Shown one piece after another: positions 7,508-44,865 of a stretch of 64,000 nucleotides of DNA (its first letter is position 1; every line of letters starts with the position of its first letter). Made by a program: the position numbers and the translations under genes. Under the pieces are notes generated by a model that had not been told where the DNA came from, did no database searches, and saw only the letters and a list, made by a program, of their open reading frames with translations. Source of the stretch: Terriglobia bacterium (GTDB lineage Bacteria; Acidobacteriota; Terriglobia; Versatilivoradales; Versatilivoraceae); contig OZ244053.1 in NCBI GenBank assembly GCA_965215235.1, positions 3,431,192-3,495,191 on the forward strand, in the 5' to 3' direction.

Positions 7508-8638
7508 CTAAGCCTTTGCGACAAAGTCGTTCAGCACCTCTTTACAGCGGCGGGCGACCTCCTCTTCCTCGCCGGGCTCAAGCATCCATGAACTTAACTC
7601 CAAGCGAGGACCCTGGATAGGGACGGGCGAGACCTCAATCCGTGGTTCCCCCTGACGGAGCGCTTCCACGAAACGCTCCCTACTGAACTTGAGATTCCGA
7701 GCATCCCACTCGATGGCCAGGTGGGGAACCTGACTGGATATGACCGGCACGAAGCGTTCGGTTCGGATACCTGGAATTCCATGCAGGGCCGCGGCAATCA
7801 CCTGAAGCTGCTCCTCCCATCGCTCCCAATCAGCCTCATGATCTCTCTTCAAATACAACTCCAGCGCCTTCCAAAAACCAATGATTCCCTCTTTGCCAAC
7901 CTTGGCCACTCGACCGAGACGGTCGGGGTTAGGTGATGCATTCAAAAAGGCCGCCTGAATCAAGTCCTGCCGTCCCAACAACAAACCGGAAGATTGTGGA
8001 CCCCTGAGGCCTTTACCCCCGCTGAAAGCCGCCAGATCGTAGCCCATTTCGATCAAGGCGCTGAGATTTTCTACCGGGGGAATATCAGCGGCGGCATCAA
8101 TGAGGCAGGGTAAACCTGAATCCCTGGCAATTCCAACAAACTCTTTTCGGTTGATTTCCCCGCGGGGATCAGCCATGTTCAGAAAAAAAAGCATGGCTGT
8201 CCTGGAGCTGATTGCAGCTTCCAGCTCCTGTCGACTGTCAACCTCGATCAGCTTGACTCCAACATTGCGAATGGCATGATCGTACTCGACTCGATGAGAT
8301 CTTTGCAGAATGACCTCGTTCTTCATTCCCCGGGTATCGGGTAAACGTCTCATCTTGTCTTCGTCACCTCGACAAACACAAGCTGCGGTCGCCAGGGTCA
8401 GGGCTGCAGCACAGCCACAAGTCACCAACGCCGCCTCGGCGCCGAGCCAAGCGGCTATCTGTTGTCCAACGACTTCTTGCAACTCCGGGATGGAGACATA
8501 TTGCTTAGAGGCTTCCTCCATGGCTTCGATGACCTGGGGAGGCATGAGAGAACCACTGAACCGAGTGTAGCTCCCTCCCGCATTGATGAATGGCCGGAGT
8601 CCCAGGACTTCATAAATGCTGGATTGAGACCTCTGCAT
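7508..8638 (-). CDS. PLP-dependent SelA-like enzyme (L-seryl-tRNA(Sec) selenium transferase-related fold)
   Basis: SelA-like motifs SSGGKGLRGPQSSGLLLGRQDLI (lysine as PLP site) and SIPELQEVVGQQIAAWLGAEAALVT. Start at MQRSQSS has GGAGGG 5 nt upstream. No SECIS or Sec machinery in the window, so true SelA function is doubtful. Confidence 0.7.
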   Translation of the reverse strand: MQRSQSSIYEVLGLRPFINAGGSYTRFSGSLMPPQVIEAMEEASKQYVSIPELQEVVGQQIAAWLGAEAALVTCGCAAALTLATAACVCRGDEDKMRRLPDTRGMKNEVILQRSHRVEYDHAIRNVGVKLIEVDSRQELEAAISSRTAMLFFLNMADPRGEINRKEFVGIARDSGLPCLIDAAADIPPVENLSALIEMGYDLAAFSGGKGLRGPQSSGLLLGRQDLIQAAFLNASPNPDRLGRVAKVGKEGIIGFWKALELYLKRDHEADWERWEEQLQVIAAALHGIPGIRTERFVPVISSQVPHLAIEWDARNLKFSRERFVEALRQGEPRIEVSPVPIQGPRLELSSWMLEPGEEEEVARRCKEVLNDFVAKA

Positions 8639-8701
8639 AACTGCCCTCCGGGGCAACTGGGGAACATCCCTTCGCCACCTGCAAACGCTGTTATGGCGTA
8701 G

Positions 8702-8719
8702 CCGAGCCAAGTGGCTCGG
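8702..8719. promoter_or_regulatory. Perfect 18-bp palindrome CCGAGCCAAGTGGCTCGG about 65 bp upstream of the SelA-like gene; candidate operator
   Basis: Read directly: ccgagccaagtggctcgg is its own reverse complement. Confidence 0.3.
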
Positions 8720-9130
8720 GATAAATGTGCCTGAAGGGCGAAAAATCGGCCCTGAACAGGACAAAAATTACCGGAACAACGGGGAAAAGCCCCAAAAGGG
8801 ACAGAAACCCCTGTCTATAACCCTTCTGATGACCAATCTATCCGAAACATAACGTTATGCAGAGGCCTCGGATTGACCAAGCTGCCGGTTGCGTTGAACC
8901 ATGATTCTCCAAAACCATTGCCTCGTGGCAAGGTCGGTCGGTGAACCCCGACACAAAAGTAGCACAGTTCTCGGCGGGTCTCAAAGAGTCCCTGTCGGAG
9001 CATCGAGCGACCGATGGAGTCATTCTATGCTGTCTATGGAAAACGGTGGATGAACCCGGAGTATCGGAAAATTTGGGGTGTCCGGATAATTTTGAGAAAT
9101 CAGCTGCCCATCCGGGACAGAGATACACAC

Positions 9131-9186
9131 CGAAGGTGGGACACCGAAGAGAGGATGCCCCACTTTCGGTGCGAGTCCGGTCGCCA
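9131..9186 (-). terminator. Strong hairpin (12/13-bp stem) immediately downstream of the BON gene; terminator-like, no U-tract
   Basis: caccgaaggtggg...(17 nt)...cccactttcggtg inverted repeat on the plus strand, placed just after the BON stop (9200) in the transcription direction. Confidence 0.35.
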
Positions 9187-9199
9187 AGAACCCCGGGGC

Positions 9200-9778
9200 T
9201 TAGCTTTTCTGCACGACGAGACTGTTGGTCACCGAGAAAACTCCGGGGACCTCCAGAGCTCTCAGGTAGGCAAAATTCTTGTCCGACTCGCTGTTGACCA
9301 TGCCGACGAGGGTCACATGTCCTCTTTTTACAATGATCCCGATCGCCTCGTAGTCACCCAGGCTGTAAGGGAATAGGCGACTCCCCCGGTTGTAAAGGGC
9401 ACGATAGACCGCCAGTCGAATCTGATCATCATTCGGTGAGTTCGGCAACACTTCGATATTGTTGACGACCTTGGAAACGCCCTCGATTCTTTCCACGACT
9501 CTTGCAGCAGAATTCTTCAAGCCCGGGCTGGTGACCTGGCCGATCAATTGAACAGCATCACCATCAATCTGAAAGCCGAGGTGGTCGAAGACACTGAAGT
9601 ACGGAAGCATGACCAGTTCGTGGCGGACCTTGTTCTCCAGCCATCTCTGGTCCTGAGCCGAGGGATTCTCAGCTACGGTTCCGCCGGTCTGCGGATTGCC
9701 CGCCCAAGAAACCGCCGATACGGCCAACAGCACTGCCACAAAAAAAGAAGTCATCGTTGCTTTCCTGAATGTTTTCAT
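9200..9778 (-). CDS. BON-domain (OsmY-like) periplasmic protein with two BON domains
   Basis: Signal peptide MKTFRKATMTSFFVAVLLAVSAVSWA. Two BON-like segments (VMLPYFSVFDHLGFQIDGDAVQLIGQV...; YEAIGIIVKRGHVTLVGMV...). Confidence 0.8.
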   Translation of the reverse strand: MKTFRKATMTSFFVAVLLAVSAVSWAGNPQTGGTVAENPSAQDQRWLENKVRHELVMLPYFSVFDHLGFQIDGDAVQLIGQVTSPGLKNSAARVVERIEGVSKVVNNIEVLPNSPNDDQIRLAVYRALYNRGSRLFPYSLGDYEAIGIIVKRGHVTLVGMVNSESDKNFAYLRALEVPGVFSVTNSLVVQKS

Positions 9779-9914
9779 CGTTTTTCATCCTCCTGGTCAG
9801 GCTCGATCCGGATTCTTGTGAATGGTTGAATCTCCGCCGGACCGGCAATGAGAGTGCTCAGGCAACCCGAAGGTTGCTTGGCTCCACTGATATTTCTATA
9901 GATGCCTGTTAGCC

Positions 9915-9960
9915 CAAAAGCGATGTAAAGAGTTGGTCAACGCCAAGTAAAGTTTTGTCA
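9915..9960 (-). promoter_or_regulatory. Conserved envelope-stress element copy 1, upstream of the BON gene
   Basis: caaaag-N4-GTAAAGAGTTGGTCAACGCCAAGTAAAGTTTTGTCA. The 36-bp core is about 75% identical to the copies at 11044-11087 and 12673-12718. In gene orientation it reads TGACAAAACTTTAC-N17-ACTCTTTAC. Confidence 0.6.
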
Positions 9961-9982
9961 TCACCCCAGCATGGCCAGCCGC

Positions 9983-10975
9983 TCACGAGCGCCGCTTCAA
10001 CACGGGTCGATTCTCATCATCCGGTTGCGGCTCTTCCTCTCCATCAACTTCCCCAGGGGTACGGCGCTTCAGGGTGGGTCGCTCTTGTTGCCCTCCTGGT
10101 GATGGCCGCTTGACATTTTCCATGGCGATGAGCTTGGCTTTGATCTTGTCGAAGTCGGTGGTGTTAATGATGTACTGGTCGCGCTCCGGCAGAATCTTTT
10201 CGATGTGCGCCTGGGTTTTCTCGTCCCGCTTGTGGGTGGGCGGATGGGTCGCGAAGGCCGTGGCCAACTTGCCCCGCTTTTTCTTTTTCTGGGCCTGTAG
10301 CTTCTCAAAGAACGAAACAAACCCATTGGGGTCGTAGCCTGTCTTGTATACGTACTGAAGCCCCAGGTAGTCTGCCTCGGTCTCGGCCTTTCGGCTGAAC
10401 CTCAAGAATTGCATGGGGATCAAGAAGCTCGACGCGTTGTAGATCGCCGAGGCAATCCCTCCGCTGAGAAAGATCAGAGGGATCATGGCATAGTTGGCAA
10501 TGGTGGCTTTGGTCTGTTGCTCGGTGGCGTGGCGGGCGGTGACGTGAGCAATCTCATGGGCCATCACGCCCGCGATTTCGGATTCGTCGTCGGCTGCGGC
10601 AATCAGGCCACTGTTGACGTAGAGGAACCCTCCCGGCAAGGCCATGGCATTGATCTCTTCCGAGTCGATGACCTTAATGGTAAAGGGCACTTTGGCATCG
10701 GAGTTGCGAACGATGTTCTGGCCAACGCGGTTCACATACTCGGTGATTTCAGGATCCTCAACCAGTTTGACTTGACGTTCGATCTGCTGGGACAGTTGTC
10801 GTCCGAGAGCGATCTCCTTCTCTATTGAAATGAGATTCCAGTTACCCTTGTTGACGTTACGGTTGCCGATCTCGTCCACATCGGAGTTCTTGGGGGCCTT
10901 GGCGCCCAAGGGCGCACCGCTGACGAGGCTCACTGTCAACAAAGGGGTCAGAAAAAATCTTCTGAGGCATTGCAT
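9983..10975 (-). CDS. M48 family zinc metalloprotease (HtpX/BepA-like) with signal peptide and a low-complexity Lys/Pro-rich C-terminal tail
   Basis: HEIAHVTARH (HExxH) plus the downstream ETEADYLGLQYV glutamate motif; N-terminal signal peptide. Confidence 0.85.
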   Translation of the reverse strand: MQCLRRFFLTPLLTVSLVSGAPLGAKAPKNSDVDEIGNRNVNKGNWNLISIEKEIALGRQLSQQIERQVKLVEDPEITEYVNRVGQNIVRNSDAKVPFTIKVIDSEEINAMALPGGFLYVNSGLIAAADDESEIAGVMAHEIAHVTARHATEQQTKATIANYAMIPLIFLSGGIASAIYNASSFLIPMQFLRFSRKAETEADYLGLQYVYKTGYDPNGFVSFFEKLQAQKKKKRGKLATAFATHPPTHKRDEKTQAHIEKILPERDQYIINTTDFDKIKAKLIAMENVKRPSPGGQQERPTLKRRTPGEVDGEEEPQPDDENRPVLKRRS

Positions 10976-11043
10976 GTCCTCCTCCTTGTCGGTTCCACAT
11001 CTTTCAGATTCCTACCTCACTTAAATGGATGCCAACTTGGCTG

Positions 11044-11087
11044 CAAAAGAGGTCAAGAGTGCGTCAACACTCCGTAAAGTTTTGTCA
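11044..11087 (-). promoter_or_regulatory. Conserved envelope-stress element copy 2, upstream of the M48 protease gene
   Basis: caaaag-N2-GTCAAGAGTGCGTCAACACTCCGTAAAGTTTTGTCA; the proximal end is about 70 bp from the M48 start codon. Confidence 0.6.
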
Positions 11088-11268
11088 AGCTGGGTGGCGT
11101 TGCTTCGGGTTTGGTCCCATCGGAACGACTGAGAGAGATCCCTCCAGAGGGTGGGGAACCTGATAAGAATCGAAAGCACGGTCAGCGAGGCGGGACTCTA
11201 CTCGATGGGTTGTCTGCAGCAGGGGCGCTCGTAAAGCCATACAAGAAAAACGATCCAACTGAAAACTC

Positions 11269-11853
11269 TCAGCGAGACGGTTGCTTAACGTACACCAACT
11301 TCTGAGTTCGCTCGCCTCGCCCTCTTTTGATCGTTCTCGTGACGGTCATCACTTTGCCGTCATCAGAGAGGCTGCGGACCTCCTTCAACTCCACGCTTCC
11401 CCTGGGGGTTTCCATGCTGGATTCAGTCACCAACTGACTCCCCTCCCAGTAGGTTTTTGACGGTGTGGGCATTCCACCCAATCCCTCATGGGTCGACTCT
11501 TTTCCGTCTGTGGTGTACCTCGACTCACGGACCTGTTCGGCGCCCCGGAAATTCATTGTCTGTCTGATGATAAGCTGCGGCTCCTGGTGATCGATGGTCA
11601 GGTTGCCCATTCCACCTCCTCTGCCCATACGTTCCCTGCCAGACCGCCCCTCTTCCCTCCCTTCTCGGCGCCCTCCTTCACCCAACCTCCCACCGCCCCG
11701 TCCTCCACCAAACCCGCCGGGGCCAGGTCCACGGCCACCCCTGCCCATTTCACTCCTCTCGGGATCCAGCTCCCAGGCGCCTGAGAAGTTGGGTTTCTCA
11801 CCTGCCATCAGCATCAGGCTCAGACCCAGAAACAATATCGCCGAGACGGTCAT
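11269..11853 (-). CDS. Secreted Gly/Arg-rich hypothetical protein
   Basis: Signal peptide MTVSAILFLGLSLMLMAG. A low-complexity block GRGGRGPGPGGFGGGRGGGRLGEGGRREGREEGRSGRERMGRGGG is followed by a ~100-aa structured C-terminal domain. Lies in tandem downstream of the Spy-like gene. Confidence 0.55.
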   Translation of the reverse strand: MTVSAILFLGLSLMLMAGEKPNFSGAWELDPERSEMGRGGRGPGPGGFGGGRGGGRLGEGGRREGREEGRSGRERMGRGGGMGNLTIDHQEPQLIIRQTMNFRGAEQVRESRYTTDGKESTHEGLGGMPTPSKTYWEGSQLVTESSMETPRGSVELKEVRSLSDDGKVMTVTRTIKRGRGERTQKLVYVKQPSR

Positions 11854-12032
11854 CGCTTTCTTGGTTCCCATTACCTTTTCCTCCTTGTCGGCTGTCGTCG
11901 TTGGTTGTCAGTAGATTGCTCGATGTCTGTCAACGCCCCTAAAAGCCAACCGGCGGCAATGAGGTCGACCTTTGCCTGAAAACCAGTCAACCTCATCGCC
12001 GCTGGCGAGACCCAACCAACCCGGTTCGGTCC

Positions 12033-12620
12033 TTACGGTTGGTCGGGGCCAGGGCTGCCGCCGAAACGCTCGTGCCTCCGCTGCTTGCGCTCCTCTCTGC
12101 GGGCTTTTTGCTTCTCTTGAAACGAGGTCCATTTCTGCTGTTGCTCCGGCGTCAAGACATTAAAAAACTCCACCCGCGTCTTGGCGCCAATGGCCACCAG
12201 CTGACCCTGGAGCTGGCCGTGCTCGGCTGCTAAAGTGTCGATCTGAACCGTATCCCCTGCCTGGACGGCTGCGCCCAGAGCTTGCCGGTTGGCCCGCAAC
12301 TGTTGGCGGATGGGTCGGGATTGATCCCGGGCAGCCTGTCGGATCGCTTTGGCGTCGGCCTTTTGAGCTTCGGTCAACCCCAAAAACTCGGCCATCAGGC
12401 CTCCCATCATGTGCTTGCCGCCAAAGCCTCGCCCGCGACCACCGCGCCCACCGAAGCCCGGGAACTGGGCAAAAGCGGATTCCACCAAGAGAATCGAGGC
12501 CAGAGCAAAGGCTGCGACCACCATGCCTTTTGCAAGAATCCGGCCCGTTTGGATTTTTGTTGAAATCTGAAACATCTGAGTTTCCTCCTTAGCAAAGATT
12601 TGGATTGGAAGAGCCTTCAC
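12033..12620 (-). CDS. Spy/CpxP-family periplasmic protein (LTXXQ motifs)
   Basis: Two LTXXQ motifs (LGLTEAQKADAKAI; LTPEQQQKW), a hydrophobic signal-like N-terminus, a GRGGRGRGFGG stretch and a Lys/Arg-rich C-terminus. The true start may be an internal Met (MFQIS or MVVAAF). Confidence 0.75.
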   Translation of the reverse strand: MKALPIQIFAKEETQMFQISTKIQTGRILAKGMVVAAFALASILLVESAFAQFPGFGGRGGRGRGFGGKHMMGGLMAEFLGLTEAQKADAKAIRQAARDQSRPIRQQLRANRQALGAAVQAGDTVQIDTLAAEHGQLQGQLVAIGAKTRVEFFNVLTPEQQQKWTSFQEKQKARREERKQRRHERFGGSPGPDQP

Positions 12621-12672
12621 AGTGACCTTGCTGCGTCCCCGGCTCTTACCCTATATATACGTCGCTCAAGGC

Positions 12673-12718
12673 AAAAGGGTCGTAAAGAGTGCGTCAGTGT
12701 TCAGTAGAGTTTTGTCAG
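12673..12718 (-). promoter_or_regulatory. Conserved envelope-stress element copy 3, upstream of the Spy/CpxP-like gene
   Basis: caaaag-N4-GTAAAGAGTGCGTCAGTGTTCAGTAGAGTTTTGTCA. Confidence 0.6.
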
Positions 12719-13103
12719 CGAACGACAGACCCCCTTACAATTCTTTACAAATGACCTGTCTTGGGGATAGGGGGCAGGTGTTGGAGGTGAAGCTCCTCTA
12801 TAACAGGAGAAGTGGTGAACAATATCGGACTCAGGAAGGATGCACTGACATCTAAAATCCTCTGGCGACAGTTCCTGGTACGTCAACAAGGCCGTCACTA
12901 AGCTTTGCCATCGGCTTCTGCACGGATGAGGATTTTGTTCGATAACCTGATCCCAGAGGGAACGCTGTTCGCCAAGTGAAACCTACCCTGGAAAACTGAA
13001 CGCTGACCGAGCCAAAATGGTACTCTAGGCGATGGGCAACTTAAGCTCCGTTTAACCATCCGAGTACAACCCGGACAGCACCTATTCCCACATTGAGGTC
13101 ACC

Positions 13104-13838
13104 ATGGATCGCTTGCTGGTCATCGATGACGACACCGAGCTGTGCTCGCTGGTCACCAAGTATCTGGAGGTAGAGGGTTTTCAAGTGGACAGTGTCAACG
13201 ATGGACAGGAGGGGATCGGACGGGCTCTTTCGGGAGAGTATGCCTTGGTGATTCTGGATGTGATGTTGCCCGGCGTCAACGGTTTTGACGCCTTGCGCCG
13301 CATCCGAGCTGAATCGCGAGTCCCCGTTTTGATGCTGTCGGCCAGAGCCGAGGATGTCGAGAGAATCGTGGGACTCGAAATCGGTGCTGACGATTACCTT
13401 GGCAAACCCTTCAATCCTCACGAACTGGTCGCGCGAATCCGGGCCATCATTCGTCGCACTCAGCCCAAAGAGCCGCTTGCGCCCGAAAAAGTCATTCATC
13501 CGATGCTGACTGTGGGTGACGTCGAACTGGACAAGAATGCCTGGAAGGTCAGGCGGGCGGGCGAACCGGTGGGACTCACAGCTTTGGAGTTCAATCTTCT
13601 GGAACTGTTACTGCGGTCGGCTGGCCAGGTGGTGCCCCGTGAAGAACTCGTCCAAACACTGCTGGGACGTGAGTTCGATCCCTTTGACCGCAGCATAGAC
13701 ATGCACGTGAGCAACTTGCGCAAGAAACTGGGCCGCCAGGCGAATGGAGTCGAGCGGATCAAGTCGGTTCGGGGAGTCGGCTATGTTTATCCCCATCCAG
13801 ACACTCTTGAGGAGGAAGGGCTATCTTCCGACTCTTAA
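13104..13838 (+). CDS. cpxR: OmpR-family response regulator, CpxR-like
   Basis: MDRLLVIDDDTELCSLVTKYLEVEGF...LMLSARAEDVERIVGLEIGADDYLGKPFNPHELVARIRAIIRR closely parallels E. coli CpxR (receiver + winged-helix). The symbol is assigned by similarity and context only. Confidence 0.8.
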   Translation: MDRLLVIDDDTELCSLVTKYLEVEGFQVDSVNDGQEGIGRALSGEYALVILDVMLPGVNGFDALRRIRAESRVPVLMLSARAEDVERIVGLEIGADDYLGKPFNPHELVARIRAIIRRTQPKEPLAPEKVIHPMLTVGDVELDKNAWKVRRAGEPVGLTALEFNLLELLLRSAGQVVPREELVQTLLGREFDPFDRSIDMHVSNLRKKLGRQANGVERIKSVRGVGYVYPHPDTLEEEGLSSDS

Positions 13839-13950
13839 ACTCGTGAAAAGCCTGCCCTATGAGGAGGTCGAGAGTTGTTCGTGAGGACTGATTCAGGGGC
13901 GAGCGAAACCGTCTCGTCCTTGGTCTTCAACCAACGGCTCCTCTGCTTCA

Positions 13951-13986
13951 TTGACAAAACTTTAGAAAACCGGGTCCATTATTTAC
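13951..13986 (+). promoter_or_regulatory. Half-conserved copy 4 of the envelope-stress element, upstream of the histidine kinase gene
   Basis: TTGACAAAACTTTAG-N16-TTTAC matches the distal TGACAAAACTTTAC half and the repeat spacing of copies 1-3. It lies about 85 bp before the MNSLV start. Confidence 0.4.
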
Positions 13987-14074
13987 CGGCCATCAAGGTC
14001 GAATCAGATATAGCGGGTTGTATTCCTTGGGTCAAGCCGGGAGCCTCTGCGGTCATTGGTTAAAAACTGAAAGC

Positions 14075-15538
14075 ATGAACAGTCTCGTATTAAAAATCTT
14101 CATCTGGTTCTGGGCGGCCATGGCTTTGGTTGGCCTGGCCCTCTATCTCTCGACCCGAGCCACCATGTCCGAACAGGCCGACCGCCAAGGGCGCCAGTGG
14201 ATTGAGATGGCCATATCCCTCGTTGCGCAAACGGCGGCTGATACTTTCGAGAAACAGGGACCTTCGGCTTTGGATCGATACATCAATCGAGTCAATCGGC
14301 GGCGGCGATTTCATATCTCTTTCCTCAATGAGCAGGGGGACATCCTGGCTGGACCTGCTCTGTCACCCCGGGCGAGAACCTTGGCGATGCGTGCGATTCA
14401 GAGCGGCGAGCGCCAGATGGAATTCTCTGAGGGGGAGCGTTTGGTGGCGCAGGGTATGGTTTCATCTGAAGGTCGACAGTTCGCCTTAGCAGGCAAAATC
14501 AGGACATCTCCGCCAAGATTTCCTCCTGGACGACGGCGGGGACAACGACCGGGGCCACCATTCGTTTGGGGGGCTCTAGGCATTCCGGACGCCGATCTCT
14601 GGACCCAGGGGCTTCGCTTGCTGGCGATGTTCCTCACGGCCGGAATCGTCTGCTATGGCTTGGCGCGCTACCTGACAGCTCCCCTGGTTAAACTTCGGGC
14701 CGCCACACAAAAGTTGGCGGATGGAGACTTGGCGGCTCGGGTCGGGCAACCTAAAAGGGGCCGCCGCGATGAACTCACCGACCTTGGCCATGATTTCGAT
14801 GGAATGGCCGAACGCATCCAAAGCATGATGGCCGCTCAGCGTCGTCTGCTGAGTGACATCTCTCACGAACTACGCTCTCCCCTGGCCCGCCTCCATGTTG
14901 CTCTGGCATTGATTCGTCAACAGGCGGGCGGCAAAACCAGTGATGAGCTGGACCGCATCGAGCTGGAGGCGGGGCGTCTCAACAAACTCATCAGCCATGT
15001 ACTCACTCTCACGCGCATGGAAAGCGGCGCCGTGGAGATTGCCCACGACGACATCGATCTGGCCCAAATGGTGGCGGAGGTAGCCGCCGATGCTGAGTTC
15101 GAGGCCCGCAGTTCGGAAAAGAGGGTTTCCATCATCTCCAGCGAAGCCTGCGTTACCGTGGGAAACCACGAACTGCTGCGAAGCGCGATTGAGAATGTTG
15201 TCCGCAACGCCGTTTACTATACGGCGGACCAAACCGAGGTCGAAATTGAGTTGAAGCTGGTAGGGAAAAACCGGGGCTCAGCCGTCATAAGAGTGCGCGA
15301 CCATGGGGAAGGGGTTCGTGAGTCGGAACTCACCGAGATCTTTCGGCCATTCTACCGGGTGGCAACAGCCCGAGACAGACAGAGCGGTGGAACCGGGCTG
15401 GGACTGGCCATTACACAACGGGCGGTGTACCTGCATGACGGCTCAGTGACGGCCTTCAACGCTCCGGGTGGCGGATTGATCATCGAGATCCGACTCCCTG
15501 CGCGGCCGGGTCGGGTAGATCCAACCGGAGCACCCTAG
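14075..15538 (+). CDS. cpxA: Sensor histidine kinase, CpxA-like (2 TM, HAMP, HisKA, HATPase)
   Basis: N-terminus MNSLVLKIFIWFWAAMALVGLAL resembles CpxA. H-box ISHELRSPLARL; G-box GTGLGLAI. The start is chosen at the internal Met that gives a CpxA-like N-terminus. Confidence 0.8.
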   Translation: MNSLVLKIFIWFWAAMALVGLALYLSTRATMSEQADRQGRQWIEMAISLVAQTAADTFEKQGPSALDRYINRVNRRRRFHISFLNEQGDILAGPALSPRARTLAMRAIQSGERQMEFSEGERLVAQGMVSSEGRQFALAGKIRTSPPRFPPGRRRGQRPGPPFVWGALGIPDADLWTQGLRLLAMFLTAGIVCYGLARYLTAPLVKLRAATQKLADGDLAARVGQPKRGRRDELTDLGHDFDGMAERIQSMMAAQRRLLSDISHELRSPLARLHVALALIRQQAGGKTSDELDRIELEAGRLNKLISHVLTLTRMESGAVEIAHDDIDLAQMVAEVAADAEFEARSSEKRVSIISSEACVTVGNHELLRSAIENVVRNAVYYTADQTEVEIELKLVGKNRGSAVIRVRDHGEGVRESELTEIFRPFYRVATARDRQSGGTGLGLAITQRAVYLHDGSVTAFNAPGGGLIIEIRLPARPGRVDPTGAP

Positions 15539-43376: not shown

Positions 43377-44072
43377 CTACCCCGAAACATCGATCCTATC
43401 GTTGGTGGTGGGATAGAAACTCAAGGTCATCACAAGAGTGCCGACGGTGGGACGGCCAAGGAAGGTGGCAGGGGCCATGTAAACCCCAAAGTGGAGGAAT
43501 TGATCCAAGAGTTCGAGACTTTGCTTATCTTGGGGCCCGCTCAAGACCTTATAGTCAATCACGCGACCATCGTTGCCCACCAGAGTCTCCACGGTGACCG
43601 GTTGGTTCATGAACGCCAGATTTTCGCCAGACACAACCGGCAACATCGCCAGGGATCTGGCGCGGGGCTCGGTGAACAATCCCAAGGCCGCGTCCTGGTC
43701 GCCGGCGCCAAGGCTTGCGCCCGTAAACAGGGTGCTTAACAGCGCCACAAAGGCCAGTCCGGTCAAGACAACTCCGCTGAAGGCTGGAACGGCCAAGGGA
43801 CTCACAAGATCACCGAACTTCCCGACGATCTGCTTCAGGGGAATCCACTCTCCCTGCTCGGAGGTGGCGCTTCTGATTCGGAAGCCCAGATCCGGGGGCG
43901 GCTTCTGGCGGTCAAGTCGTTGCATCACTCGCTGCAGCGCCCTCAACTCATCCAACTCTCGTTGGCACGCGGCGCAATCCTCCAAATGATGCGCGATCTC
44001 GGCTGCCTCGCGCCAGACCAAGCTGTCATCCAGATAAGCTGGTATCAATCTGAGGACCTTTTTGCACTTCAT
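43377..44072 (-). CDS. Anti-sigma factor (zf-HC2 N-terminus, one TM)
   Basis: HHLEDCAACQRELDEL (HxxxCxxC) N-terminal zinc-finger, a central TM helix, immediately downstream of the ECF sigma gene. The start could also be 44117. Confidence 0.7.
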   Translation of the reverse strand: MKCKKVLRLIPAYLDDSLVWREAAEIAHHLEDCAACQRELDELRALQRVMQRLDRQKPPPDLGFRIRSATSEQGEWIPLKQIVGKFGDLVSPLAVPAFSGVVLTGLAFVALLSTLFTGASLGAGDQDAALGLFTEPRARSLAMLPVVSGENLAFMNQPVTVETLVGNDGRVIDYKVLSGPQDKQSLELLDQFLHFGVYMAPATFLGRPTVGTLVMTLSFYPTTNDRIDVSG

Positions 44073-44128
44073 TTCCCTTCTCCCTTTGAGGATGGGCGCC
44101 TTACCAAAAATTGGCATCCAATGAACCC

Positions 44129-44749
44129 TTAGGGCCTCTCCTCAATTAAGTGACTCAGACGCTTCCTGAGCTGGGACCGAGCGCGCCACAAACGCGATTT
44201 GACTGTCCCCAGAGAGATGCCGAGGGTTTCGGCAATCTCCTCATAGGTAAACTCCTCGATGTCTCGCAAGACAATGACCGTGCGGAATTCAACGGCCATG
44301 GCGTCCAACGCTTGTTGGACAGCCCGCTCTGTCTCCCGTCTGGCACAGGCAGCCTCCGGGCCCAAGCCCCGATCAGGGACCTCCAACGGTTTGGGGCTTT
44401 CCCAGGAAGAGGGTATCGGACTGTCCAGCGAGAAAGGCACATGGTTTCTCCAGCGCTTCCACCAGCGACGGTGGTTGAGGCTGGTTGAAAGAGCGATTTT
44501 GTAGATCCAAGTCTGGAGCCCACAATCTCCGCGGAATCGACCAATACCCTTGTAGATTCTGACAAAAACCTCTTGGGTCACATCCGATGCCTCAACCGGA
44601 TTCCCCAACAGGCGATAAGCAAGGTTATAGATGGGCGCTTGGTAGAGGTGAACCAGCGTCTCAAAAGCTTCCTCGGAACCCAACTGCAACCCATCCACCA
44701 AGGCCAGTTCGTCGTCGAGGAAATTCAGTCCTATTTCACAATTGCTCAA
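44129..44749 (-). CDS. ECF-family RNA polymerase sigma factor
   Basis: Sigma-70 region 2 (YQAPIYNLAYRLLGNPVEASDVTQEVFVRIY) and region 4 (FTYEEIAETLGISLGTVKSRLWRAR). Confidence 0.85.
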   Translation of the reverse strand: MSNCEIGLNFLDDELALVDGLQLGSEEAFETLVHLYQAPIYNLAYRLLGNPVEASDVTQEVFVRIYKGIGRFRGDCGLQTWIYKIALSTSLNHRRWWKRWRNHVPFSLDSPIPSSWESPKPLEVPDRGLGPEAACARRETERAVQQALDAMAVEFRTVIVLRDIEEFTYEEIAETLGISLGTVKSRLWRARSQLRKRLSHLIEERP

Positions 44750-44836: not shown

Positions 44837-44865
44837 TTAGACCCCGCTGGGAGAAGAAATGTTCC
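44837..44865 (-). promoter_or_regulatory. ECF/sigma-E-type promoter GGAACAT-N16-GTCTAA upstream of the ECF sigma gene (candidate autoregulatory promoter)
   Basis: Reverse complement of 44837-44865 reads GGAACATTTCTTCTCCCAGCGGGGTCTAA, matching the sigma-E-like consensus GGAAC-N16-GTCTAA, about 85 bp before the sigma start codon. Confidence 0.55.

Follow-up and report, generated by a model that had tools for sequence, protein, structure and literature searches.

Genes around the element

Within the window (the entire stretch of DNA analysed, 64 kb in length), the following genes lie around the element considered here:

9200-9778, minus strand: gene for a BON-domain (OsmY/DolP-like) protein, predicted target
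9983-10975, minus strand: gene for an M48 metalloprotease, BepA/LoiP-like without the TPR part, predicted target
11269-11871, minus strand: gene for a protein of 200 aa, rich in Gly and Arg and hydrophobic at its N-terminus
12033-12575, minus strand: gene for a CpxP/Spy-like periplasmic LTXXQ protein (Pfam LTXXQ, Metal_resist), predicted target
13104-13838, plus strand: gene for a CpxR-like response regulator of the OmpR/PhoB family (Pfam Response_reg, Trans_reg_C), proposed to bind the element
14018-15538, plus strand: gene for a CpxA-like sensor histidine kinase (HAMP, HisKA, HATPase_c)

The regulator-kinase pair (13104-15538) is divergent from the CpxP-like gene. The best NCBIfam match of the regulator is CpxR, with 215.8 bits against a cutoff of 341, and the protein shares 45% identity with CpxR of E. 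coli. The recognition helices are nearly identical, PFDRSIDMHVSNLRKKL in the window regulator and PFDRAIDMHISNLRRKL in E. coli CpxR. A database protein, P0001, is 100% identical to the regulator. The kinase, whose true start may lie downstream of 14018, has CpxA as its best NCBIfam match; its NCBIfam scores are 327 against a cutoff of 800 and 281.7 against a cutoff of 486. Since both proteins score below the equivalog cutoffs, their orthology to CpxRA is not established. The best NCBIfam matches of the CpxP/Spy-like protein, the CpxP family and Spy, are also below cutoff. The 200-aa protein had no family match in the Pfam and NCBIfam searches. It is likely secreted, and its gene, which is kept in two related loci (L001 and L002) and absent in a third (L003), is probably co-transcribed with the CpxP-like gene. 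No known RNA family was found in 9000-13200 at E <= 1.

Anatomy of the 36-bp element

A pattern search of the 64-kb window allowing up to 3 mismatches found exactly three copies of a 36-bp motif, all on the minus strand and at the places given for them in the earlier note. The chance expectation from shuffles was 0 copies, and a PWM scan of the whole 64-kb window found no fourth copy. The copies are:

9925-9960, minus strand: element copy 1, TGACAAAACTTTACTTGGCGTTGACCAACTCTTTAC, putative operator upstream of the BON-domain gene
11052-11087, minus strand: element copy 2, TGACAAAACTTTACGGAGTGTTGACGCACTCTTGAC, putative operator upstream of the M48 peptidase gene, with ATC for AAC in orthologous copies
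12682-12717, minus strand: element copy 3, TGACAAAACTCTACTGAACACTGACGCACTCTTTAC, putative operator upstream of the CpxP/Spy-like gene and divergent from the response-regulator gene, with orthologous copies in L001-L004

The element has the structure TGAC-N6-TTAC-N7-TGAC-N7-TTAC, that is, four direct half-sites T(G/T)AC spaced 10, 11 and 11 bp apart and beginning at motif positions 1, 11, 22 and 33 in all three copies. In each copy, they pair head-to-tail as (T)TGAC-N5-TTTAC and (T)TGAC-N6-TTTAC. The element is two tandem CpxR-type boxes with N5 and N6 spacers, which are canonical for CpxR. The centres of the two dimer sites are about 21.5 bp apart, so both face the same side of the helix. The earlier note had proposed a CpxR-type direct repeat of two TTTAC units two turns apart. 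It was right about the kind of site and not about its anatomy: the half-sites are four and are spaced by one turn, and the two that read TGAC (motif positions 1-4 and 22-25), which are also conserved, had been overlooked. The TTTAC-N17-TTTAC repeat itself is exact in copy 1 and carries one mismatch each in copy 2 (TTGAC) and copy 3 (TCTAC). The CTTTTG reported after each copy is present at 9915-9920, 11044-11049 and 12671-12676, lying 2 nt nearer to the element in copy 2. A mobile or REP-like repeat was considered and rejected, as the copies are found in different families at orthologous positions in promoters and are not built as inverted repeats.

Occurrence across genomes

A motif-only scan of 185,579 GTDB species genomes yielded at least 120 loci. 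The scan pattern required the half-sites and a fixed AAAAC; hence, the conservation of the half-sites in the scanned set is partly circular, and the unbiased evidence consists of the positions left free by the pattern, the flanks and those loci that were reached via the regulator protein. Among the matches listed, 116 of 120 loci belong to Acidobacteriota, and the closest identifiable relatives of the window are Candidatus Versatilivorator MAGs. The genes following the element in these matches encode OMP beta-barrel (57), CpxP/LTXXQ (about 40), M48 (10), BON (9), LolA-like (5) and VWA (3) proteins. The CpxP/Spy-like, M48, BON, OMP and LolA-like genes fit a regulon devoted to the folding and degradation of envelope proteins.

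The element is associated with the regulator gene. Among the matches listed, a divergent regulator gene starts 93-317 bp upstream of 51 of the 57 OMP sites and 68-337 bp upstream of 31 of the 39 CpxP-like sites; for most of the remaining sites, the upstream sequence is too short to judge the presence of the regulator. All the orthologous loci, with a regulator identity of 89-68%, keep the motif adjoining or near the regulator-kinase pair. In the OMP class, a fifth half-site is located upstream, and the element stops 12 bp before TACAAT.

The bases between the half-sites are also conserved. AAAAC shows little variation in 16 sites from the window and L001-L006, and about 90% of the sites listed retain the CTC of ACTCT (motif positions 29-31), which was free in the scan pattern. 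This is more than a plain GTAAA-N5-6-GTAAA box needs and counts against reading the element as a simple operator. The same applies, for one family, to the gene content downstream: among the matches listed, Pyrinomonadaceae feature cpxP-like-(lolA-like)-ECF operons behind the element; the regulator-kinase pair is adjacent, and an anti-sigma gene is not apparent. An involvement of ECF in this family thus retains some small probability. The ECF factor of these operons is a different paralogue, about 30% identical to the window ECF factor, and among these matches its gene lies downstream of the element only in a subset of Pyrinomonadaceae.

Downstream hexamers and predicted transcription starts

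Candidate -10 sequences were found downstream of the three copies:

12654-12659, minus strand: -10-like hexamer TATATA, 22 nt past element copy 3, predicted start at about 12647
9895-9900, minus strand: -10-like hexamer TATAGA, 24 nt past element copy 1, predicted start at about 9888
11024-11029, minus strand: weak -10 candidate TCCATT at offset 22 from copy 2 (TCTGAT in relatives), predicted start at roughly 11017, low confidence

The -10 regions of copy 3, GAGCGACGTATATA, and of copy 1, TCTATAGRAATRTCA, are both kept in the window, L001 and L002; the flanks of the former diverge, and the latter also occurs in seven of the nine BON sites. The -10 candidate of the M48 copy is poor, which speaks against the operator reading. 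Transcription had been expected to start just past the element, near CTTTTG. This is probably wrong, as the conserved -10-like hexamer 22-24 nt past the element, overlooked at that time, puts the predicted start about 28-30 nt farther downstream. With such a hexamer distance, the element in the window would span roughly -72 to -35.

The distance is phased. At OMP sites, the TA of TACAAT or TAGAAT is at offset 12 in 30 of 32 non-redundant cases; the remaining two have it at offset 11. In non-redundant class-B sites, the TA of TAnAnn is at offset 22 in 22 of 43 and at offset 24 in 13 of 43, and offsets 13-21 are nearly devoid of TA among the non-redundant matches listed. Such a 10-bp jump is a signature of a helix-face-dependent activator at a promoter lacking a -35 sequence. 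A promoter scan predicted no full sigma-70 promoter on the gene strand. The position of the element thus fits the activation of a housekeeping-sigma promoter, with -10-like hexamers at distances one turn apart (12 or 22-24 nt) and no -35; the final T missing in many class-B hexamers counts against it.

Three other promoter assignments were rejected. A sigma-70 promoter inside the element would place TTGACA (motif positions 21-26) at least 22 nt from any -10-like hexamer. CTTTTG is unsuitable as a -35 or start-site motif, since the CpxP copies of L001 and L002 read CTTTCG and GCTTGG and it is not at a constant distance from the element; all that persists around it is a loose T-rich tract, mainly in the OMP class. 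For an ECF-type -35 upstream of the GCGT(A/C) block (offsets 19-23), AAC is not conserved at the required distance.

Alternative explanations

The second reading offered by the earlier note was an ECF (sigma-E-type) promoter, with AAAACTT as -35 and TCTTTA as -10, read by the ECF factor of the window or by another one and starting transcription a few nucleotides past the element. The relevant features are:

44129-44749, minus strand: ECF sigma gene, together with a zf-HC2 anti-sigma gene at 43377-44117 on the same strand, not linked to the element
44837-44865, minus strand: autopromoter of the ECF sigma gene, GGAACATTTCTTCTCCCAGCGGGGTCTAA, with a motif different from the element

As had been reported, AAC and TCT are fixed 20 nt apart in all three window copies. 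Among the matches listed, AAC is present in 67 and TCT in 65 of 75 non-redundant sites, and the Pyrinomonadaceae ECF gene is co-oriented downstream at about 18 sites, once directly behind the element; moreover, E. coli sigma-E targets include such envelope functions. However, the two readings can be discriminated from sequence, contrary to the previous opinion, because the cores are lost at orthologous sites where the half-sites persist. Among the matches listed, 9 of 10 M48 copies and 8 of the 75 non-redundant sites have ATC in place of AAC, and TCT is replaced (GTT, TAT, ACT) in 10 of the 75. L005 loses both cores (TGACAAATCTTTAC...GCAGGTTTTAC) and keeps all four half-sites, whereas the orthologue of the window ECF gene in the same MAG (L129) retains a perfect GGGAACTTTTT...GTGTCTAA autopromoter. 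The window autopromoter is, as described earlier, GGAACAT-N16-GTCTAA with 19 nt from AAC to TCT. It is conserved (GGGAAC...GTCTAA) in the orthologues L128, L129 and L130 with a freely varying spacer, whereas the supposed spacer of the element contains a conserved T(G/T)AC half-site. The 20-nt distance in the element also differs from the 19 or 18 nt of four orthologous ECF autopromoters, and in the element, AAC is preceded by ACAA (ACAAAAC) rather than by a G-rich run. GGAAC-N16-20-GTCT has three hits in the window against 3.3 expected, the autopromoter hit alone being meaningful. The sigma/anti-sigma pairing of the window ECF locus is conserved in relatives, but this locus is 31 kb away from the element, and among the matches listed, an ECF gene is present at 0 of the 57 OMP loci, as opposed to the adjacent regulator noted above. 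Finally, the ECF reading gives no role to the conserved, near-consensus TACAAT at 12 nt or the TA-hexamer at 22-24 nt past the element. We consider it highly unlikely and, from these sequence comparisons, reject it.

A composite site would be a CpxR-type operator whose AAAAC and ACTCT bases also serve a second factor, such as an ECF sigma, providing dual input. The unusual conservation between the half-sites, including CTC at 29-31, favours such a site, and feedback is conceivable in the Pyrinomonadaceae operons with their ECF gene and no obvious anti-sigma gene. If true, two envelope-stress pathways would meet on one 36-bp sequence across a phylum. Nevertheless, all objections to the ECF promoter hold here too, the ECF-containing operons are a lineage-specific subset, and an anti-sigma-less ECF gene under the control of a kinase-regulator pair, for which CseBC-SigE of Streptomyces is a precedent, suffices to explain them without dual use. 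This makes a composite site very improbable. It is very improbable, too, that the same regulator binds the element and represses. E. coli CpxR represses some porin genes, and the OMP-class element lies at about -60 to -25 with respect to TACAAT, where it overlaps the -35 position. Against this, the -10 hexamers are not preceded by a -35-like hexamer at a distance of 16-18 bp, which should make for weak promoters unless an activator is present; the window copies, at about -72 to -35, are in a typical activator position; and the E. coli cpxP promoter, which is activated by CpxR, has the same layout as the element.

Proposed function and significance

The best explanation, with a probability of roughly 85% as judged from sequence, is that the element is the operator of the adjacent CpxR-like regulator and serves to activate -35-less promoters of envelope genes. 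The partner of the regulator would be the CpxA-like kinase encoded downstream of it, which, under envelope stress, would phosphorylate the regulator. Two regulator dimers would then bind the element and recruit RNA polymerase with the housekeeping sigma factor to a promoter that has a -10-like hexamer and no -35. The genes switched on in this way may be those for the M48 protease, the BON-domain protein and the CpxP/Spy-like protein (a chaperone or feedback factor), the last together with the 200-aa gene that follows it.

Acidobacteriota are an abundant, poorly cultured phylum of soil and sludge. A literature search found no study of a CpxR binding site or regulon in this phylum. With the analysis, a Cpx-like envelope stress system of Acidobacteriota has a candidate operator at the sequence level and a predicted core regulon. 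The proposed regulon includes the CpxP/Spy-like chaperone, the M48 protease and the BON protein, to which other lineages add a large OMP, a LolA-like protein and an ECF sigma factor. The logic of cpxP-cpxRA and the CpxR half-site code would, hence, reach beyond Proteobacteria, and the motif can be used for annotating envelope-stress genes in MAGs. The proposed switch is of an ordinary kind and not a new mechanism; what is new is its description in Acidobacteriota.

Comparison with known systems

RpoE/ECF promoters (GGAAC-N16/17-GTCTAA) resemble the element in having AAC and TCT about 19-20 nt apart upstream of envelope genes. They differ from it in that the cores of the element are unconserved across orthologous sites, its spacer is conserved, its spacing is off by 1-2 nt and, among the matches listed, it does not co-occur with the window ECF gene. 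The CseBC-SigE system of Streptomyces coelicolor is similar, judging from gene order, to the Pyrinomonadaceae operons, which contain an ECF gene with no apparent anti-sigma gene and lie next to a regulator-kinase pair; such an arrangement is absent from the window. The pho box of PhoB and the F/C sites of OmpR share with the element the head-to-tail half-sites with a 10-11-bp period in arrays of 4-6, which abut or replace the -35 of a -10-only promoter; about 10 bp separate the end of the pho box from the -10. The half-site sequence, the regulator subfamily and the signal are different.

The closest similarity is to the Cpx system. The published CpxR motif is GTAAA-N5-6-GTAAA, and the sequence protected by CpxR~P in the Yersinia cpxR-cpxP region contains GTCA-N6-GTAAA, the same TGAC/TTAC mixture as in the element. 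In the E. coli CpxR box, too, a GTAAA-like pentamer is directly repeated, with N5 and N6 spacers in between, whereas the half-sites of the element alternate TGAC/TTAC in a fixed order with strongly conserved spacer bases. In the E. coli cpxP promoter, the sequence cTTTAC-gttgt-TTTAC-accccc-TGAC-gcatgt-TTGC is separated by 11 nt from a downstream TAAACT; like the element, this promoter has four half-sites with a period of about 10 bp toward cpxP and then a -10-like hexamer, from which the window element is one helical turn farther (22-24 versus 11 nt). The window differs from E. coli in its host phylum, in the 45% identity of its regulator and in the regulator, kinase and CpxP-like protein scoring below the equivalog cutoffs. 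In both systems, the cpxP or CpxP-like gene is divergent from the regulator-kinase pair, and the targets, predicted ones in the case of the window, are periplasmic protein-quality-control factors.

The element in the window

The 36-bp element was found on the minus strand in three copies, each with a gene of its own downstream.

Element copies and surrounding genes in the window
9925-9960, minus: copy 1 (BON), TGACAAAACTTTACTTGGCGTTGACCAACTCTTTAC
11052-11087, minus: copy 2 (M48), TGACAAAACTTTACGGAGTGTTGACGCACTCTTGAC
12682-12717, minus: copy 3 (CpxP/Spy-like), TGACAAAACTCTACTGAACACTGACGCACTCTTTAC
9200-9778, minus: BON-domain protein gene, downstream of copy 1
9983-10975, minus: M48 metalloprotease gene, downstream of copy 2
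12033-12575, minus: CpxP/Spy-like LTXXQ protein gene, downstream of copy 3
11269-11871, minus: Gly/Arg-rich 200-aa protein gene, without Pfam or NCBIfam match, behind the CpxP-like gene
13104-13838: OmpR-family response regulator gene, divergent from the CpxP-like gene
14018-15538: HAMP/HisKA kinase gene, divergent from the CpxP-like gene

With a degenerate pattern and 3 mismatches allowed, these copies were the only three matches, against 0 expected in shuffles, and scanning all of the window with a PWM gave no further copy. Four half-sites are conserved (TGAC-N6-TTAC-N7-TGAC-N7-TTAC, periods of 10, 11 and 11 bp), which can be written as two dimer sites, (T)TGAC-N5-TTTAC and (T)TGAC-N6-TTTAC; the bases between them are also strongly conserved. 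The earlier note described TTTAC-N17-TTTAC, a pattern that holds and is exact in copy 1 only, and offered a CpxR-type box as one reading. The direct repeats are of the CpxR type, but four half-sites are present where two TTTAC repeats had been seen. The best NCBIfam matches of the regulator and kinase are CpxR and CpxA, each below the equivalog cutoff. Judging from sequence, the element is, with a probability of about 0.85, a tandem CpxR-type operator, which would most likely activate housekeeping promoters that lack a -35 and drive envelope quality-control genes. Its value lies in the definition of this regulon for Acidobacteriota.

Orthologous loci

The element was looked for on the contigs of six regulator homologues: L001, L003, L002, L004, L005 and L006 (regulator identity 89, 84, 82, 75, 72 and 68%, respectively). 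The element lies beside or near the regulator-kinase pair in all six. In L001, L002 and L003, AAAAC is replaced by AAATC or GAATC in the M48 copy. The element of L005, TGACAAATCTTTACAGCGGTCTGACGCAGGTTTTAC, has lost both AAC and TCT and kept all four half-sites; that of L006 is ACTATTTAC.

Gene content around the copies varies. The 200-aa protein, Gly/Arg-rich in one stretch, has a hydrophobic N-terminus that is probably a signal peptide; its gene, probably co-transcribed with the CpxP-like gene, is kept in L001 and L002 and missing from L003. A PQQ beta-propeller/EF-hand gene stands between the BON and M48 genes in L001 (1249-2982), L002 (1498-3243) and L003 (1443-3179); the window lacks it, and the BON element therefore directly follows the M48 stop codon. 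In L003, the regulator and kinase genes are separated by an inserted reverse transcriptase of the group II intron type (RVT_1 and GIIM domains; 8359-9699, minus).

The ECF-sigma reading

The other reading offered was an ECF-sigma promoter. The AAC-to-TCT distance in the element is indeed 20 nt, and GGAACAT-N16-GTCTAA was located before the ECF gene (44837-44865, minus). This autopromoter is real, being kept in orthologues at 77, 62 and 57% identity as GGGAAC(A/T)TTT, a non-conserved spacer and G(G/T)GTCTA(A/T). The ECF sigma gene and its zf-HC2 anti-sigma are 31 kb distant from the element region. The autopromoter differs from the element in its G-rich -35, where the element has no G-rich run, in its -10 (GTCTAA), in its shorter AAC-to-TCT spacing (19 nt, 18 nt in one case) and in its freely varying spacer, whereas the "spacer" of the element contains a conserved T(G/T)AC half-site. 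In one MAG (L129 and L005), the autopromoter is intact, while AAC and TCT are both missing from the element. The ECF model also gives no role to the phased -10 hexamers described below or to the outer TGAC. On these grounds, the ECF promoter was rejected in favor of the CpxR-type operator.

A different ECF sigma (about 30% identity to that of the window) is encoded co-oriented downstream of the element at about 18 Pyrinomonadaceae loci among the matches listed, within a cpxP-like-(lolA-like)-ECF operon adjoining the regulator-kinase pair (e.g., L070 3752-4916, L020 1688-4175 and L023 842-2632). No obvious anti-sigma gene was found in these operons. In L023, the ECF gene is directly behind an element copy of its own. 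The simplest reading is that these operons may form a cascade, the two-component system driving the ECF gene; less probably, the element may be in dual use at these loci.

Distribution and downstream genes

When one genome per GTDB species was searched by the motif alone, with no protein criterion, at least 120 loci matched. Among the 120 matches listed, 116 belong to Acidobacteriota (Pyrinomonadaceae, Terriglobia/Terriglobales and Candidatus Versatilivorator); the remaining four resemble the small number of hits to be expected by chance. With the window and L001-L006 added, 136 unique sites were analysed.

Genes downstream of the element (sites among the 136 listed)
Large OMP beta-barrel with CarboxypepD_reg domain: 57
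CpxP/LTXXQ: about 40
M48 peptidase: 10
BON domain: 9
LolA-like: 5
VWA: 3
ECF sigma: 1
Transglutaminase-like: 1

Among the matches listed, a divergent regulator homologue starts 93-317 bp upstream at 51 of the 57 OMP sites and 68-337 bp upstream at 31 of 39 CpxP-like sites, the upstream sequence of the remainder being mostly too short to tell. Pyrinomonadaceae (e.g., L008 versus L070) have two regulator classes with near-identical recognition helices, each divergent from the same motif: the OMP-adjacent class has 62-68% identity to the regulator of the window, and the class adjoining the cpxP-like-ECF operon 54-60%.

Promoter geometry

The -10 hexamers that follow the element are of the housekeeping type and keep to discrete distances from it. 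In the OMP class, TACAAT, TAGAAT or TAAAAT begins 12 nt after the element end in 54 of 57 listed sites and 11 nt after it in 3 (TA at 12 in 30/32 non-redundant sites). Among the 43 non-redundant sites listed for the other promoters, 22 have TAnAnn at offset 22 and 13 have it at offset 24, and TA is nearly absent at offsets 13-21. These -10 elements have no -35-like hexamer before them. Two fixed -10 positions one helical turn apart are the expected product of a helix-face-dependent activator. In OMP-class sites, the four half-sites of the element are preceded, one turn upstream, by a fifth.

-10-like hexamers in the window
12654-12659: TATATA, CpxP-like gene
9895-9900: TATAGA, BON gene
11024-11029: TCCATT, weak, M48 gene

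The hexamer blocks are kept in L001 and L002 despite diverged flanks; CTTTTG, which does follow every copy as claimed, has no such conservation. The start proposed there is replaced by starts predicted from the hexamers, near 12647 and 9888.

Leaders also show conservation. At OMP-class loci (L008, L011, L029 and others), a conserved leader sequence containing caagctggggcgtaacgcactctat lies 20-50 nt after TACAAT; it recurs in many Pyrinomonadaceae behind the -10 of the OMP gene next to the regulator. The BON leader is long (about 110-145 nt; window 9779-9894, minus) and has a GC hairpin, gcaaccttcgggttgc; L001 shares its blocks ctgag..ctctcatt.ccgg, gattcaaccatt and caagaatccgg. The leader has no Rfam match.

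Two sigma-70-like promoters face the regulator gene. One, at 12712-12741 (plus), is TTGTCA-N18-TACAAT (10/12 matches, 1.4 such matches per region being expected by chance). The first half-site of the element, reverse-complemented, forms its -35, and the stretch is also readable as a single plus-strand CTTAC-N5-TTTAC box, partly kept in L001 (CTGAC-N5-TTTAC) and missing from L002. The proximal one, conserved between the window (13000-13050, plus) and L001 and L002, is CTGAAC-N19-TACTCT in the former and TTGA(A/G)C-N18-TACCCT in the latter two, and includes the block ACCGAGCCAAAA.

Comparison with known systems

In the OMP class, the element takes the place of the -35, an arrangement like that of the pho box; the window promoters differ in that the element stands one turn further upstream. 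The CpxP-like gene and divergent regulator-kinase pair have the layout of E. coli cpxP-cpxRA. With E. coli CpxR, the regulator shares 45% identity and an almost identical recognition helix (PFDRSIDMHVSNLRKKL in the regulator versus PFDRAIDMHISNLRRKL). In the Yersinia cpxR-cpxP region, the CpxR~P-protected sequence holds GTCA-N6-GTAAA, the same mixture of half-sites as in the element. The E. coli cpxP promoter, cTTTAC-gttgt-TTTAC-accccc-TGAC-gcatgt-TTGC followed after 11 nt by TAAACT, likewise has four half-sites toward cpxP and then a -10-like hexamer.
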